In this document: positions 5,845-30,548 of the stretch, piece by piece
How the letters are laid out: each line of letters begins with the position of its first letter
How positions within the stretch are numbered: the stretch's first letter is position 1
From: a virus
Lineage: Duplodnaviria > Heunggongvirae > Uroviricota > Caudoviricetes
DNA: 47,382 nt
Virus record (IMG/VR): IMGVR_UViG_2684623189_000004
Strand: one strand, 5' to 3'
Notes under the pieces: generated by a model
What the model was told of the DNA's origin: nothing
Database searches by the model: none
The model's input: the letters and a program-made list of their open reading frames with translations, nothing else
Program-made: the position numbers and the translations under genes

Positions 5845-8800
5845 TCAGCTGATACTGATGCCTGCGGTGGCTTTCTTCATCACCACAACCAGCAAATCGC
5901 TGATACTTGCTGTGGGATACCAGTTATTCACCAGCCATGCTGACACCGAAAACTCCAGCGTCATGTGGCCGCGACCAGCTGGCATATCAATAACACCACT
6001 GTAAATCAGCGTATTATCCAGCGCGGTACGGTTATAAATTTCAGCACCGTTTTTCCGTACTATCAGGCGGCATGACGAATAAATATCGTTATTCTCCCGC
6101 TCATGTTTAGCGCCGCTGAATGCCACCGCCGGAATAACAATCTGCCGGTCAAACGGCTGATCGTCATAAACCCTGACGGTGATGGTCCCTGATGGCCACC
6201 GTTCCGGTGCACGGGAGTCCCGGGGGAAAGCTTTGCCCACTGTTTTAACGAGATCGCCTTCAATCTGGTTGGCGGACAATTTTCCCAGAACCCGACAGTT
6301 CTCGTTAATCGTGACGTTGTTGAGCGTCCCGGAGTTCGCATTCACGTTACCGCTGATATCGGCATTTTTCGCCGTCAGCCGCCCGTCCGGTGTCAGGGAA
6401 AATGCCGGAGGATTACCGCCGCTGGTAATGGTCGGAGCCGTCAGGCGTTTCAGGAACACGTCGTTCATGAATATCTGATCGCCCTGACCAACAAACATCG
6501 GCTTTGTGTTGCCATTCGCAGGATTAATCATCGCAATCCGGTCAGCAGCCAGAAGCACCTGACTCTGCATACCTGCTGGCGTATTCTCAATACCGGCTCC
6601 GATACCCGCAATATAAAGGCGTCCGTCCTTCATCTGCTGCAGTTTCACGGCCCACATGCTGTTCAGGTTATTATTTGTATCAACCTGAACTTTCTGTATC
6701 TGCTGGATTGCCGCACTCTGGTCTTCCAGTTTTTTATTGACGGTCTGCGTGATTTCATTGCTGACATTCGTAATGGACGTCCTGATTTCAGCCAGGTCCG
6801 GCGCAAGCTGACCGTTATCAATCTGCGTCCACAACTCCTGGGCCAGATGTGTTTTCCCGATTTCTCCTTTGAAAAAATCCAGGTAACCTTCCGCATCATC
6901 GCTCGCCCGACCGACAGCCTCCACGAATGCCGATTTGCCAACGGTGTTCACACTGCGAACGTAAAAATAATAATCATGGCCCGGTTTGATATTGATACTG
7001 GCGGCTATCCAGTACAGCGCCGTACCAAGATAGCGGGCTGTGGTTTCAACCTGCCTGATATCGGTAATCCGCTTTTCCGAGAACCAGAACTCAAACTGTA
7101 CCGTCGGGTCATAAACAGCAAGATGCGGCGTGGCGGTTATCTGAAAATAGCCCGGCGTCAGCTCAATCCTCGACGGTGCTGCCGGTGCGGCAATCCGGAA
7201 CGATACCGACGCCGGATCGCCCTGCTGCCCCCGGGCATTTACCGCCCGGACTGTCAGCCTGTAGTTCCCCAGCGCCAGTTGCGTGAAGCGGTATGTGGTT
7301 TCCGTCGTCCGGGCCGTGCTGACCAGTCGCTCACTGCCGTCGTCCGCTGTTACGGTCAGACGGAGCAGGAAGCTCACGCCCTTCACCACCTTCGGTGTGT
7401 CCCATCGCGCCAGCACCTGATATTCCCCGCTGTCTGCAGTGACTTCGGCGGTCAGGTGCTGCACTGCTGGCGGCGTGACACCATTCACCGTGCCGCTCTG
7501 GTCACCGTCAAAGTGCGCCCCGTTATCCACGATGGCTTCTTTCTCCGGTACATGCTGCACGGCGGTGATGGCATACGTGCCGTCATCGTTCTCACGGATA
7601 CTCACGCAGCGGAACAGGCGCTGGCGCAGCGTCGGCAGCTTCAGCCCCCACACGCTGTATTCTGCAACGCCGTCAGGAACACGGCTCACTTTCACCTTCA
7701 CGCCGTCGGTGACGGACTGGACCTCCACGCTGACCGGATTACCCTGACCGTCAACCAGGCTTATCAGCGTGGTACCGGAGGATGGCAGCGTGATTTCACG
7801 GTCGAGCGTCAGCGTCCGGGTCTGGCTGTTCACCGCCAGCACGCGACCACCGGTGCTGATACCGGCATAGTCATCATCGCAGATTTCAATGACATCGCCC
7901 GGTACATGGCGAAGCCCTTCAGCACCCACGCTGAAATCCACGGTCTGCGTCTCCAGCAGTTCCGTTTTAATCAGCCACAGCCCGGCGCGGTGTGCCTGCC
8001 CCCGGCTGGTACAGCCAAAGGCATCCATCTTCGTGACGTTACGACCGTAACGGGCAATGGCCTGCGTGTCCTCCACAAGCTCTGTCGCCGTCTCCCAGCC
8101 GTTATCCGGGTCAATCCAGTTCACCTCAACAGCATTATGGCGGTCTTTCAGGGCGCTGAAGCTGTAGCGGAACGGCGCACCATCATCCGGCATCACCACA
8201 TTACTGCGGTTATAGGTCCACACCTTATCCGACGGTCGGTCCTGCACGAACGTCAGCGTCTGCCCGTTCCATACCGGCATACAGCGCATCGCCGAGCAGA
8301 AATCACTGAGAACATCCCACGCCTTGCGCTGTGTGGTCAGGTAGGCATTACAGGTGATGCGCGGCTCCGTGCCACCAAAGCCATCCGGCACCGACTGGTC
8401 GCAATTCTGGCCGATGACATACAGCGCCCATTTGTCCACATCCGCCGCACCGAGACGCTTCCCCATGCCGTAGCGCGGATGGGTCAGCATATCCCACAGA
8501 CACCAGGCCATGTTGTTGCTGTATGCTGGCTTAAACGTTCCGTCCCAGATACCGCTGTATTGCCGCGTCTGCGGGTTATAGTTCGACGGCACCTGCAGAA
8601 TGCGCCCGCGAAGATGATAATTACGGCTCACCTGCTGGCTGCCGAACTGTTCCGAGTCCACCTGCACGCCGACCAGTGCCGTGTTCGGGTAGCACTGTTT
8701 CACATCGATGATTTCGGTGTATGACGACCAGAGCGTTTTGTTCTGCAGCTGGTCTGTGGTGCTGTCCGGCGTCATTCTGCGCATCCGGATATTAAACGGG

Positions 8801-9324
8801 CGCGGCGGCAGGTTATCCACCACCACCGAGGCCAGATACTGCGAGGTGGTTTTGCCCTTAATGGTGATGTCTTTTTCCGTCACCCAGCCACCGTTACGCT
8901 GGATCTGAACCAGCAGGCGGACTTCCGACGGATTCCTGTCCCCCTTTGAGGTGGTTTCCACCAGTGCCTGCACACCGAAGGTAAAGCGCAGACGGTCGAT
9001 GTTTGCCGACGTGATGGTCCGGGTGATCGGCGTGTCATATTTCACTTCCGTACCCAGCACCGTCTCGGAGCCGGAGGATTCAAATCCCTCCGGCGGTGTC
9101 TGCTCCTGCTCACCTGCCCGGAACACCACCGTGACACCGGATATATTGGTATTCCCCTCACTGTCCAGCACCGGCGTACTGTTCAGCAGCACGCTTTTTA
9201 ATCCGTCCACCGGACCTTCAACCGGCCCTTCGCTGATGGCATCGATCACACTCAGCAGCTGCGTGGACTTCAGGTTGTCCCTCGCTTCGCGCGGGGTATG
9301 CCCCTTACTGCTTCCTTTACCCAT
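5845..9324 (-). CDS. J: tail tip host specificity protein J
   Basis: 1159 aa; follows I; size and position as lambda J. Confidence 0.9.
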
Positions 9325-9337
9325 TCCTCACACTCCA

Positions 9338-9366
9338 TAAACAACAAAGCCGCCCAAAAGGCGGCT
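9338..9366 (-). terminator. terminator-like hairpin after lipoprotein moron, just upstream of J
   Basis: minus strand AGCCGCC-TTTTG-GGCGGCT followed by TTGTTGTTTAT. Confidence 0.4.
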
Positions 9367-9390
9367 CATGAGTTACGACAGGATTAACTA

Positions 9391-9729
9391 TTATTTACAT
9401 GCATTAACACTATCAGCAAAAATTTTTGGCGTTAATGCTGGTACACGTTCATAAAGAGTAAAACTACTGCCATTTCCTGCTTTTTTGATATCAAGCACAA
9501 CATCATATCCCCCCATAGCCTGTGGAACTAAAAGGCTTACCCCATTCTCAATAGGAAGGGATGTTATAGGTGTTCCATTACCAGCCCATTGTCTGGATAT
9601 GCAGCCTGACAATTCATCAATATTTTTTAATGAATTACCTTCCATTACAGGTTTTCCGGATTTTACGTAATCCAAAGATTTACATCCTGTTAAGGCAATA
9701 ATCGTGCAGAATAAAATCGTTTTGTTCAT
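9391..9729 (-). CDS. lipoprotein (moron inserted between tail genes I and J)
   Basis: 112 aa from ATG; signal peptide with lipobox LTGC; region about 38% GC, much lower than flanking tail genes; lambda has I and J adjacent. Confidence 0.55.
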   Translation of the reverse strand: MNKTILFCTIIALTGCKSLDYVKSGKPVMEGNSLKNIDELSGCISRQWAGNGTPITSLPIENGVSLLVPQAMGGYDVVLDIKKAGNGSSFTLYERVPALTPKIFADSVNACK

Positions 9730-9802
9730 ATAGCTAACCAATAGAATAATTATCAGTGTTCGATATAAATATTAAATTAGTTAGAACATGAGTAAAATAA
9801 TA

Positions 9803-10444
9803 TTACCGCCCAATTACCACAACCTGACCACCATCCCCTTCATCTGCCGTGCTGATCTCCTGAGATGCCACACGTGACCCCACGCGCATTTCACCGTACA
9901 GAACAGGCAGGACATTGCCCTGGGCAACCATGTTATCCAGTGAGGAGAAATAGGTGTTCTGTTTGCCGTTATCCGTTGTCTGTGTACGGGGAGTTCTGGC
10001 TTTCGGTGCCAGCATCTGCGCCACACCACCAAGCGTCATCGCCGCACCCATTGAAAAGAGAATGTCACTGAAAGCGATACTGATCCCCGGCATCCAGATT
10101 GCCGTAGCAATCAACGCCGCACCCAGCACCGCCTGAAACACACCGCCACTTTTTGCTCCCGCAAGACGCGGCACGATGTGGATCACGGCACCATTTGCCA
10201 GCGGCTCATTAAGACGGGATGATAATTCGGTTTCTCCTGCATCCCGCCCGGCAATCCGTACCTGATACCAGCCATCGCTCAGTTTCTGACGAAACGCCGG
10301 GAGCTGTGTGGCCAGTGCCCGGATGGCTTCAGCCCCCGTTTTCACACGAAGGTCGATGCGGCGGCCAAATCGTTGCAAATCCCCGTAAAGGCAGATGCGT
10401 GCCATTCCCGGTGACGCCAGAGGGAGTGTGTGCGTCGCTGCCAT
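9803..10444 (-). CDS. I: tail assembly protein I
   Basis: 213 aa; overlaps K 3' end; position K-I-J. Confidence 0.8.
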   Translation of the reverse strand: MAATHTLPLASPGMARICLYGDLQRFGRRIDLRVKTGAEAIRALATQLPAFRQKLSDGWYQVRIAGRDAGETELSSRLNEPLANGAVIHIVPRLAGAKSGGVFQAVLGAALIATAIWMPGISIAFSDILFSMGAAMTLGGVAQMLAPKARTPRTQTTDNGKQNTYFSSLDNMVAQGNVLPVLYGEMRVGSRVASQEISTADEGDGGQVVVIGR

Positions 10445-24749: not shown

Positions 24750-25227
24750 TGGAGGCTTTCGCGATTTCAGTTTTCACCACATCAAGGTGTGATGGTGAAA
24801 TGTCCGGATATTTACGCTGTAATGTCAACGGCACACGCACAAGTATCCCCGAAATCTCCTGTGCCACACGTTGCAGAATGAAGGTAAACAGTTCAGTTTC
24901 CAGCACCACTCCGTCTTCACGGGCATTTTTCAGTTCCTGCGCATCTGCCTGCGCTTTTGTGAGCCGGTAGCGTTCATAGTCAATGGTGCCGGGTTGTAAA
25001 TCTGACTCCGCTGCCGCACGCAAATCGGCCAGTTCTTTGCGGAGCTTTTCGTTTTCGATATCAGTTTCCCTCTGCGCATACCACTGAATTGCCATGGCAG
25101 TATCAAATACAGATTCAATGCCCTTACTGCCTTTGGAGACGCAAGGGAGCCCCTGAGACTGCCAGCGTTCAATCGTCCGCGGGTCCACGTTAAAAATTTC
25201 GGCAAGCCTCTTTTTATTAACCTTCAT
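24679..25227 (-). CDS. Nu1: terminase small subunit Nu1
   Basis: start [12 protein letters not shown] resembles lambda Nu1 MEVNKKQLADIF; ORF track extends 8 codons upstream. Confidence 0.85.
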
Positions 25228-25402
25228 AGAACAACCCATTATCAAATACAAGGCCCGACATGAAAACGCCAGAAAAAGGCATTTTCGGACACTTTCATGT
25301 CGGACATTTATGAATGCAATATTAAAAAAAACAAAAAGTTATATTCGAGAAGTACCGACACGATTTTCCCTGAAAAATTTTCATAAATAGTGAAAAACCG
25401 CG

Positions 25403-25414
25403 AGGTCGCCGCCC
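25403..25414. other. cosN cohesive-end site (12-nt GGGCGGCGACCT on minus strand); cosB lies between it and Nu1
   Basis: minus strand GGGCGGCGACCTCGCGGTTTTTCACTATTTATGAAAATTTTTC closely matches the lambda left end as recalled; about 175 bp upstream of Nu1. Confidence 0.85.
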
Positions 25415-25613
25415 CGTAACCTGTCGGATCACCGGAAAGGACCCGTAAAGCGATAATGATTATCATCTACATATCACAACGTGCGTGGAGGCCATCAAAC
25501 CACGTCAAATAATCAATTATGACGCAGGTATCGTATTAATTGATCTGCATCAACCTAACGTAAAAACAACTTCAGACAATACAAATCAGCGACACTGAAT
25601 ACAGGGCAACCTC

Positions 25614-25847
25614 ATGTCAACGAAGAACAGAACCCGCAGAACAACAACCCGCAACATCCGCTTTCCTAACCAAATGATTGAACAAATTAACATCGCTCTT
25701 GTTCAAAAAGGGTCCGGGAATTTCTCAGCCTGGGTCATTGAAGCCTGCCGCCGGAGACTGTGCTCAGAAAAAAGAGTTTCGCCTGAAGCAAACAAAGAAA
25801 AGAGTGACATTACTGAATTGCTCAGAAAACAGGTCAGACCAGATTGA
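25614..25847 (+). CDS. small protein, possible ribbon-helix-helix fold (YbcW-like; conserved between Rz and cos in lambda-type phages)
   Basis: 77 aa; RNIRFP...IEQI...AWVIEACRR pattern; opposite strand to late genes. Confidence 0.45.
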   Translation: MSTKNRTRRTTTRNIRFPNQMIEQINIALVQKGSGNFSAWVIEACRRRLCSEKRVSPEANKEKSDITELLRKQVRPD

Positions 25848-25904
25848 AGCAATTTAGATAATCGTGCAGACTACCCCCCCTCATATCACATGGAAGGTAC
25901 TACA

Positions 25905-26315
25905 ATGGCTCAGATTGCCATTTTTAAACAAATATTCGATAAAGTGCGAAATAATTTAAACTATCACTGGTTTTATTCTGAACTAAAACGTCACAATGTC
26001 TCACATTACATTTACTATTTAGCCACAGAGAATATTCATCTTGTTCTTGAAAACGATAATACGGTTTTAATAAAAGGACAGGGTAAGGTTGTAAATGTAA
26101 GATTTTCAAAAAATAAATGCCTTATAGAAGCCACCTTAAAAGGATTCAAATCAGGAGAGTTATCATTTTACGAATACAGGAAAAATCTTGCTACAGCAGG
26201 GGTTTTCAGATGGATTACAAATATCCACGAAAACAAAAGGTATTACTATACCTTTGATAATTCATTACTCTTTACTGAGAACATTCAGAACACTACACAA
26301 ATATTTCCGCACTAA
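25905..26315 (+). CDS. hypothetical protein (YbcV/DUF1398-like as recalled)
   Basis: start [13 protein letters not shown]-rich; same plus-strand unit as 25614..25847; lambda carries a similar ORF here as recalled. Confidence 0.45.
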
Positions 26316-26622
26316 ATCATAACGTCCGGTTTCTTCCGTGCCAGAACCGGACTCGCTGGCATGATGAAATATGTGTACCCGGTAACCCCGGTGTGCATCG
26401 TTTTTGATTATTCCCCCACACTTGTGCAGAAGGAGTTCCCCGTCAGGCTACAGTCATAATTAATGCAAGAGTACAGCGACGATACAGCGCACAGAAATAA
26501 ATCAGGTATCCATTGACTTCACAAAGACGGTACATAGCATCGACAGGAGTAATTGCGTAAATTGAACTCTTGGCACACTTTAGCCACCGGCGAATCTTCA
26601 GCGGATTATCCTTGGCCGGTTT

Positions 26623-30298: not shown

Positions 30299-30375
30299 TG
30301 GCGCGTTGTACTGGATTCGAACCAGTGACCGATTGCTTAGAAGGCAATTGCTCTGTCCGGCTGAGCTAACAACGC
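30299..30375 (-). tRNA. argO: tRNA-Arg (anticodon UCU)
   Basis: 77 nt; 7-bp acceptor GCGTTGT/ACAACGC, anticodon loop CCTTCTAAG, T-loop GGTTCGAATCC, 3' CCA. Confidence 0.85.
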
Positions 30376-30388
30376 AGGATACAGATAA

Positions 30389-30466
30389 TGGACCGCCTTC
30401 GGGGACCCGAACTCCGCGCAACCAGCTTCGAAGGCTGGCGCTCTTTCCTGATGAGCTAATGGCGGT
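30389..30466 (-). tRNA. argN: tRNA-Arg (anticodon UCG), atypical stems
   Basis: anticodon arm CCAGC-CTTCGAA-GCTGG, D-arm GCTC...GAGC, encoded CCA; mismatches in acceptor and T stems; exact ends uncertain. Confidence 0.55.
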
Positions 30467-30472
30467 ATGTGA

Positions 30473-30548
30473 TGGTGGCCCTTGCTGGATTTGAACCAGC
30501 GACCTGGCGATTATGAGTCGCTCGCTCTCACCACTGAGCTAAAGGGCC
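30473..30548 (-). tRNA. ileZ: tRNA-Ile2 (anticodon CAU, lysidine type)
   Basis: 76 nt GGCCCTTTAGCTCAGTGG...CTCATAATCG...GGTTCAAATCC...GGGCCACCA; close to E. coli ileX as recalled. Confidence 0.85.

Follow-up and report, generated by a model that had tools for sequence, protein, structure and literature searches.

A phrog_914 lipoprotein gene at the I-J junction of a lambda-like Escherichia coli prophage: anatomy, distribution, linkage to tail gene I and a possible role in phage exclusion

The window analysed here, i.e. the whole 47,382-nucleotide stretch of IMG/VR record IMGVR_UViG_2684623189_000004, represents a lambda-like prophage that is located at ompW in B2 extraintestinal pathogenic Escherichia coli (ExPEC) and has its tail genes on the minus strand. 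The subject of this report is a lipoprotein gene lying between the tail genes I and J. The tested region of the prophage is 100% identical to E. coli UTI89, S88, APEC O1 (APEC, avian pathogenic E. coli), IHE3034 and ATCC 11775. The I-J gap spans 478 bp (9325-9802), from the J start codon (9324) to the I stop codon (9803), and contains a single open reading frame (ORF) at 9391-9729, which starts with ATG, encodes 112 amino acids and has the same orientation as the tail genes. A first-pass annotation, made from the sequence alone, had called a 112-residue lipoprotein with the lipobox LTGC at this position; the call holds, with the minus strand to be stated. A TTG four codons 5′ of the ATG could serve as an alternative start and was judged less likely. 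The features of the locus are as follows:

9391-9729 (stop codon included), minus strand: prolipoprotein coding sequence, 112 residues (ORF list; identical and annotated in UTI89; match to phrog_914)
9682-9693, minus strand: lipobox codons L13-T14-G15-C16 (sequence)
9730-9802, minus strand: spacer from the I stop codon to the lipoprotein ATG, 73 nt, 20.5% GC (composition, promoter scan)
9368-9390, minus strand: 3′ untranslated stretch, with the junction between insert and backbone at about 9375 (alignment with empty-site phages)
9338-9367, minus strand: GC-rich hairpin with a 9-bp stem at 9347-9367 and a T-rich tail (terminator scan, fold, homologues)
9803-10378 (RefSeq start; alternative ATG at 10444), minus strand: tail tip gene I, the upstream neighbour (ORF list, RefSeq)
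5845-9324, minus strand: central tail fibre/host-specificity gene J, the downstream neighbour (ORF list, RefSeq)

The RefSeq entry for the lipoprotein is WP_001332187.1, ‘hypothetical protein’, and a literature search for this accession gave no match. In the window, the I protein has hydrophobic helices and a GGV.QML.P motif, as does lambda gpI.

The first-pass annotation had also described the gene as a moron, and this is borne out by the comparison with related phages, in which it is an extra and compositionally foreign gene. Alignment with PhiR49_1* and Ayreon places the added DNA at about 9376-9802, i.e. approximately 430 bp running from directly after the I stop codon to about 9375. About 110 lambdoid phage records match both flanks yet have an I-J gap of only ~60 bp, and the I/J backbones closest to that of the window (90-99% identical) are without the lipoprotein gene. 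When 78 E. coli I-J junctions were sampled without bias, by homology to I, 73 proved empty, three held the lipoprotein gene and two a sodC insert. The insert was rightly called AT-rich by the first-pass annotation, though the GC content of 9338-9802 is 34.8% instead of the roughly 38% given there; the coding sequence has 36.3% GC, while I and J have ~57%. No other stretch in the structural half of the window (1-25000) falls below 40% GC, and other copies of the family (L002, L007, L010, L075, L076, L084 and L085) are likewise GC-poorer than their flanks.

The lipoprotein is 48-59% identical to copies from tail modules in which the I, K, L, M and J proteins share no more than 30-41% identity with those of the window. 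A lipoprotein that is more conserved than its neighbours, in combination with closest backbones that do not have the gene, is the signature of horizontal transfer. Thus, a single-gene cassette of ~430 bp reached the I-J junction of a lambda-like tail operon by horizontal transfer. This junction is a recurrent cargo slot for periplasmic proteins, because sodC inserts there as well and HK022 has annotated morons in both the K-I and the I-J slots. In the two sodC cases (IMG/VR contigs L216 and L220), the I-J gap is ~700 bp and encodes, on the opposite strand, a SodC-like Cu,Zn superoxide dismutase (...HGFHIHENASC...). Four other IMG/VR contigs (L019, L049, L028 and L039) show partial tandem M-L-K-I duplications, or deletions that fuse the lipoprotein to side-tail-fibre/lom genes, which indicates that rearrangement around the lipoprotein junction is frequent in them.

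The hairpin at 9347-9367 folds at approximately -21 kcal/mol (z -2.5) and sits just upstream of the J ribosome-binding site. The first-pass annotation had assigned this terminator-like hairpin to the insert. The hairpin is present, but it is a resident feature of the backbone and not cargo of the insert, because the empty sites already hold a homologous one: the 60-bp I-J gaps of the insert-free PhiR49_1* and Ayreon have the same 3′ arm and T-tail, the context before J, ...TTTATGGAG, is common to all three, and the hairpin folds at about -21 kcal/mol in each. In the Ayreon record it is labelled a terminator. Most loci examined (the window, L002, L007, L010, L076, L084, L085, L095 and phiAH14a) have a hairpin with a T-run after the lipoprotein gene; in phage ST846-OXA48phi9.1 just 15 nt lie between the lipoprotein gene and I. 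More generally, GC-rich hairpins with a T-run and a ...TTTATGG(A/G)G context occur before the I or J start in many lambda-like tail operons, including insert-free junctions (e.g. window 9338-9367; L014 and L015, 623-682; L002, 6366-6395; L095, 5354-5383). Within a late operon, such a hairpin might serve as an attenuator, stabilise the RNA or provide translational context. An Rfam scan of 9200-9950 returned GcvB only, below threshold (19.6 bits vs. a cut-off of 42).

Judged from the sequence, expression of the lipoprotein by read-through of the late tail operon is certain in principle. In the window, the gene is preceded by a weak Shine-Dalgarno sequence, and inspection of the 73-nt spacer by eye gives only 8/12 sigma-70-like matches, in DNA of 20.5% GC. 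Several other copies of the family begin ~30 nt past the K stop codon and have a good Shine-Dalgarno sequence.

The encoded protein starts with MNKTILFCTIIALTGCKSL, and its N-terminus reads MNKTILFCTIIALTGC, followed by KSL. Residues 1-15 form a predicted signal peptide (MNKTILFCTIIALTG directly before the Cys) with the lipobox L-T-G-C, and lipidation is predicted at Cys16. The predicted mature protein has 97 residues from Cys16 and carries Lys17 at position +2. This lipobox fits the form [LVI][ASTVI][GAS]C; 122 of 129 family representatives match a lipobox pattern, and the misses that were inspected (P0009 and P0012) still have Gly-Cys. According to the Lol rule, Asp at +2 is the signal for retention in the inner membrane. 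Since the residue is Lys here, and Asp at +2 occurs in none of the 122 members, sorting of the lipoprotein to the outer membrane is expected. Neither Cys43 (long helix) nor Cys111 (C-terminal helix) varies within the family, and 106 of the 122 members have exactly three Cys; a Cys43-Cys111 disulfide is therefore likely. An AlphaFold2 model built from a 12-sequence alignment (mean predicted local distance difference test score, pLDDT, 83.7) gives a compact alpha/beta domain with helices at residues 19-24, 37-50 and 103-111 and five strands.

The protein matches the phrog_914 hidden Markov model (HMM) with an E-value of 7.3e-33, residues 1-112 aligning with positions 1-118 of the 118-position profile. 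This family is annotated as function unknown, and its carriers are for the most part phages and other mobile elements. When 1.84 billion representatives were searched exhaustively with an HMM, 125 clusters (50% identity) of lipoproteins of 105-150 residues emerged, which share C16, P27, C43, W48, G63 and C111; the motifs S-x-K, G-x-D-x3-D and Y-x-R/E are partly conserved. Weak matches to DUF6491 appear in only 5 of 60 family members, and a sequence-profile search of the PDB gave signal-peptide matches only. In a fold search of BFVD, the sole strong match is the family member of Pseudomonas phage phiAH14a. Other fold neighbours are Flpp3/DUF3568, a Francisella outer-membrane lipoprotein, and the N-terminal domain of BamC, which show 6-10% identity and no sequence-profile relation. 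The structural similarity to Flpp3 is weak and generic (TM-score, i.e. template modelling score, ~0.5; 6-9% identity; fold class TBP-like/KA1-like alpha+beta) and permits no functional inference.

The lipoprotein gene is real and under strong purifying selection: among E. coli alleles dS (synonymous divergence) is 0.05-0.10, dN (nonsynonymous divergence) is 0-0.012 and dN/dS is 0-0.2, and between genera dN/dS is 0.06-0.36. A 434-bp unit is present at 97.5-100% identity in 336 of 5426 complete E. coli genomes (6%), at several chromosomal positions and in up to three copies per genome. Its carriers include the B2 ExPEC/APEC strains UTI89, S88, APEC O1 and IHE3034 as well as O104:H4 and CE10. The great majority of ~59 E. 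coli copies on viral contigs look intact, four having visible frameshifts or truncations; the frameshifted or truncated minority of E. coli copies includes L072-L074 and L083 as well as the proteins P0002, P0007 and P0018. In a tblastn search with the window protein against 50,697 phage records, no isolated phage was found to carry the gene at E 1e-5, and distant homologues only were returned at E up to 5. The isolated phages with members of the family include Fraca, ST846-OXA48phi9.1 and phiAH14a.

Overall, the family is found in lambda-like tail-tip modules of phages and prophages of E. coli, Klebsiella, Kluyvera, Enterobacter and Pseudomonas. Genes of the close subfamily (48-62% identity) are found in one of three tail slots, always in the same orientation as the tail genes, namely:

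E. coli, ~58 viral-contig loci: lipoprotein gene between I and J
Klebsiella and Kluyvera: lipoprotein gene between K and I
Enterobacter: lipoprotein gene between T and H, where HK97 has its gp15 moron

In E. coli, the gene is ~73 nt downstream of I. We also sampled three divergent subfamilies, namely the Fraca type (E. coli, Hendrixvirinae; 76 loci), the Klebsiella ST846-OXA48phi9.1 type (14 loci) and the Pseudomonas phiAH14a type (11 loci). Of these ~101 loci, nearly all have the gene 55-80 nt upstream of I, the exceptions being one locus with a 381-nt gap to I and one contig that ends before I, while K can be anywhere between 30 and 2800 nt away. A distance of at most ~80 nt to I is thus found in four subfamilies, from Enterobacterales and Pseudomonas. 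The I proteins of the lipoprotein-carrying modules share invariant motifs.

In phiAH14a, the gene and a second copy of I next to it follow a cI-like repressor gene in the same orientation. The annotated start of this member (p33; KU708004.1, L097 4962-5948) is truncated: an in-frame ATG 66 nt upstream gives a protein of 115 residues with the lipobox LSGC, and the gene is followed by a terminator hairpin and then by the second I copy. In L075 (2063-6911), a ~4-kb insert between K and I contains, in order, antirepressor-like (Bro-N/KilA/ANT-type) and helix-turn-helix ORFs assigned by eye, a family lipoprotein nearly identical to the Jejubacter protein P0006, a 149-residue lipoprotein, and I. Unrelated lipoproteins are also encoded directly before or after I, e.g. 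phiAH14a p83, AH14b p21 and the 149-residue protein of L075. Of these, p83 and the L075 protein, both from the K-I slot, were considered as relatives and rejected, since they show no similarity beyond the signal peptide.

The lipoprotein is not matched to the receptor-binding domain of J. Among E. coli loci in which the lipoprotein is 99-100% identical, the last 200 residues of J fall into at least four unrelated types. Within the Fraca subfamily, one allele cluster at 90% identity is combined with seven J C-terminal clusters and, conversely, one J C-terminal cluster is combined with four lipoprotein allele clusters. Furthermore, the J C-terminal type of the window is common in Shiga toxin (Stx) and PPompW phages that do not have the lipoprotein. 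A search of the literature by phage name yielded no receptor data.

Several phage-encoded envelope proteins offer themselves for comparison. The Cor proteins of phi80, N15, HK022 and mEp167 and Llp of T5 are superinfection-exclusion lipoproteins that inactivate FhuA. They resemble the window protein in being phage-encoded, in having a lipobox and outer-membrane sorting (predicted here), in their conserved Cys pair and in their location in the tail-tip module, and HK022 Cor likewise ends in Cys-Lys. In contrast, the mature window protein has 97 residues vs. ~60, its predicted fold is alpha/beta (three helices, five strands) vs. the beta-rich fold of Cor/Llp, and it shows no co-variation with the receptor-binding domain. 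In a 2026 preprint, Llp and the Cor proteins are grouped into a single structural family, small and beta-rich, whose disulfide is essential; the preprint places llp directly upstream of its receptor-binding protein (RBP) gene, an arrangement that, according to its authors, promotes co-segregation. The HK022 cor gene is located after J.

The first-pass annotation had stopped short of assigning the protein to the Cor family, and our searches lead to the same place. Membership in Cor/Llp was rejected, there being no relation in sequence, profile or fold. With hhalign, only the signal peptide and ~12 mature residues of HK022 Cor (77 residues) align with the family profile; the profile match to T5 Llp (8a60_B) is confined to residues 1-20 (E 0.95), and neither Llp nor Cor is among the listed best matches of any fold search. 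Although otherwise unrelated, HK022 Cor (L092 8739-8972), phiAH14a p83 (L098 4239-4661) and the family alignment share a mature start of the form C-A-[SG]-x(2-4)-[LV]-[RE]-x(2,3)-[K]-P, with an hhalign probability of 83-91% over ~30 residues. This stretch could be a common tether or mere signal-peptide bias.

A parallel in genetic layout is the HK97 gp15 moron, an exclusion protein encoded in the T-H slot, which resides in the inner membrane and blocks DNA entry while leaving the receptor untouched, in a manner that depends on the incoming tail (PMC3594210). Like gp15 and HK022 gp20, the window gene is a single-gene insertion encoding an envelope protein, and the slots are the same (T-H for gp15, as in the Enterobacter copies, and K-I for gp20). 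The proteins themselves differ. HK022 gp20 matches YebO in a Pfam scan, whereas the window protein has neither this domain (PF13974) nor a transmembrane helix beyond the signal peptide, and it is a predicted outer-membrane lipoprotein while gp15 is in the inner membrane. The third comparison is with the mEpimmI proteins Lpp021 and Lpp010, lipobox proteins from the structural cluster of temperate coliphages, for which exclusion has been shown experimentally and whose specificity follows the receptor used, OmpA or LamB (PMC11893012). They share with the window protein a lipobox and a gene in the structural cluster. The mEp021 Lpp was set aside as a relative or slot-mate: no mEp phage record matched in the tblastn search (50,697 phage records, E up to 5), and between K and J mEp021 has only I and an HNH endonuclease gene, the latter between I and J. 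From the gene numbering (gp81 vs. gene 79 for J), we infer that Lpp021 is encoded after J. Three other candidates were considered and set aside, namely the lambda Bor/Iss family (0 Pfam families at E up to 10), an o-spanin (a lysis cassette is already present in the prophage, and the protein lacks the shortness and proline richness of an o-spanin) and a virion component (the protein is predicted to be exported and lipidated).

With these comparisons in hand, our preferred interpretation, which we put forward as possible and not as probable, is that the lipoprotein blocks phage entry at a non-receptor or otherwise unspecified step, conferring superinfection exclusion and protecting released progeny. 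The protein would be anchored in the inner leaflet of the outer membrane, with its ~95-residue alpha/beta domain, probably stapled by Cys43-Cys111, facing the periplasm. From this side of the outer membrane it would act on a step common to lambda-like tails instead of on a particular J receptor. A role in entry is suggested because the examined tail-operon morons with a tested exclusion role (Cor, gp15, Llp and the mEpimmI Lpp proteins) all act in the envelope. The persistence of the gene in phages of very different hosts favours a benefit to the phage over a niche-specific role in virulence. In addition, the same residues are conserved in Pseudomonas and enterobacterial phages irrespective of the J C-terminus, which makes a conserved target more plausible than a specific receptor. 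Overall, an exclusion function appears plausible, and it is probably not a receptor-matched one.

The kind of mechanism favoured for the lipoprotein is that of HK97 gp15, i.e. a block of DNA entry without involvement of the receptor. In lambda, gpI is a trimeric plug of the tail tip bound to the C-terminal fragment of the tape-measure protein; binding to LamB releases gpI, and its hydrophobic helices are proposed to enter the outer membrane (PMC11101478; PMC12617516). The favoured target would be the ejected gpI and the C-terminal tape-measure piece that accompanies it, at the point of their release or their insertion into the outer membrane; the alternative would be some conserved component of the envelope. 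That gpI is the target is speculative. In its most specific form, which we consider unlikely as it stands, the proposal is a new class of exclusion without receptor plugging, in which the lipoprotein would intercept the ejected gpI and tape-measure fragment so that DNA delivery aborts after adsorption. If true, the lipoprotein would do at the outer membrane what HK97 gp15 does at the inner one, and it would offer a genetic way into the step at which lambda penetrates the outer membrane.

A number of observations weigh against an entry-blocking role. The window protein matches no Pfam family at E up to 10 and, in NCBIfam, gives only a signal-peptide-level match to VirB7 (E 0.08); the anti-phage defence models of PADLOC likewise give 0 families at E up to 10. 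Distant members are found away from tail modules, i.e. in a prophage replication module (on the opposite strand), in an integrase island or next to head genes, and the Enterobacter subfamily occupies the T-H slot. The linkage to I may stem from few independent insertions, perhaps a single ancient insertion between K and I that was inherited with few transfers, and thus carries low statistical weight. In other prophages, the I-J slot holds sodC, a host-fitness gene. Finally, no sense-strand sigma-70 match of at least 9/12 was found upstream of the gene in four loci, namely the window and L002, L007 and L095 (Klebsiella, Enterobacter and Fraca copies). There is no convincing promoter in any of the four, so that lysogenic expression is no more than a possibility.

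As an alternative, the gene might be a host-fitness or virulence moron whose lipoprotein would alter the envelope of the lysogen with respect to serum, stress or immune interactions, as lambda Bor or prophage SodC do. This explanation strikes us as rather unlikely, though it survives best among the alternatives. It is in keeping with the sodC genes in the I-J slot of other E. coli prophages and with the presence of Lom just after J here, with the opposite-strand distant members outside tail modules, and with the commonness of the E. coli allele in ExPEC/APEC lineages (UTI89, S88, APEC O1 and IHE3034); in addition, the best solved structural neighbour, Flpp3 (PDB 2mu4), is listed as a virulence determinant of F. 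tularensis. However, prophage descent can explain the ExPEC enrichment, the likeness to Flpp3 is weak and generic, and there is no match to Bor/Iss or another family and no detected promoter. The retention of the gene in tail modules of phages from an Antarctic Pseudomonas and from Klebsiella, Enterobacter and E. coli is also a poor fit to a niche trait.

As a predicted small outer-membrane lipoprotein that has a Cys pair and whose gene adjoins those of the tail tip, the protein recalls Llp and Cor in compartment as well as in architecture. It might, as the first-pass annotation had considered, be a plug that binds the periplasmic face of one receptor (e.g. FhuA, LamB or OmpC), excludes the phages using it and shields progeny from debris. 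The mEpimmI structural-cluster lipoproteins, which exclude phages of the cognate receptor, provide a precedent. We nevertheless think such a plug unlikely. Beyond the missing relation to Cor/Llp in sequence and fold, an identical lipoprotein accompanies at least four unrelated J C-termini and the Fraca alleles do not track the J type, whereas llp adjoins its RBP gene; moreover, the conserved residues are the same in Pseudomonas and enterobacterial phages, whose receptors differ.

T4 Spackle, which inhibits the tail lysozyme, is the model for a third alternative, in which the lipoprotein would be a periplasmic inhibitor or immunity protein directed against a peptidoglycan hydrolase (of a phage tail), a bacteriocin or a type VI effector. 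A small periplasm-facing lipoprotein with a predicted disulfide would suit this role, and in most subfamilies the gene directly follows K, whose product has JAB and NlpC/P60 peptidase domains; the enzyme with which lambda crosses the peptidoglycan is still unidentified (PMC11101478). We find this doubtful all the same, as the protein has no similarity to known immunity or inhibitor families, the position of gpK in the virion is unknown (PMC12617516), and it is the distance to I that is fixed while that to K is variable. As for a decaying or neutral hitch-hiker ORF without current function, the frameshifted or truncated E. coli copies and the weak ribosome-binding site and undetected promoter of the window allele would agree with it, but strong purifying selection, Cys, Trp and Pro residues that are invariant over 125 clusters and the apparent intactness of most of the ~59 E. 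coli viral-contig copies make it highly improbable.

Envelope-protein morons in tail operons are a known route by which prophages alter the susceptibility of their hosts, and few families of them are characterised (Cor/Llp, HK97 gp15 and the mEpimmI lipoproteins). The phrog_914 lipoproteins are widespread and unstudied, and are unlike Cor/Llp in sequence and predicted fold; their anatomy, their distribution and their linkage to gene I are what is new here. Should the exclusion function be true, these lipoproteins would affect the host range of therapeutic phages in ExPEC and Klebsiella, and their independence of J together with the linkage to I would point to a block of outer-membrane penetration, a step so far known only from structures.

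Other features of the window were noted in passing. Three prophage tRNA genes lie at 30299-30548 on the minus strand, in the late-regulatory region, where a DNA methyltransferase gene is located upstream of them; ARAGORN identifies them as Arg-tct, Arg-tcg and a Met tRNA with a CAT anticodon (Ile in RefSeq). At the prophage end, beyond the tail-fibre assembly gene and opposite to the tail genes, a class I S-adenosylmethionine-dependent methyltransferase gene at 612-1280 on the plus strand (coordinates converted from L001 3413-4081) is likely a further cargo gene. Two more AT-rich islands (31-39% GC) are found at 25101-26400, overlapping DUF1398 and ynfO, two genes on the opposite strand that separate the lysis from the terminase genes, and at 37001-38500, overlapping hypothetical early genes; both are possible additional morons.

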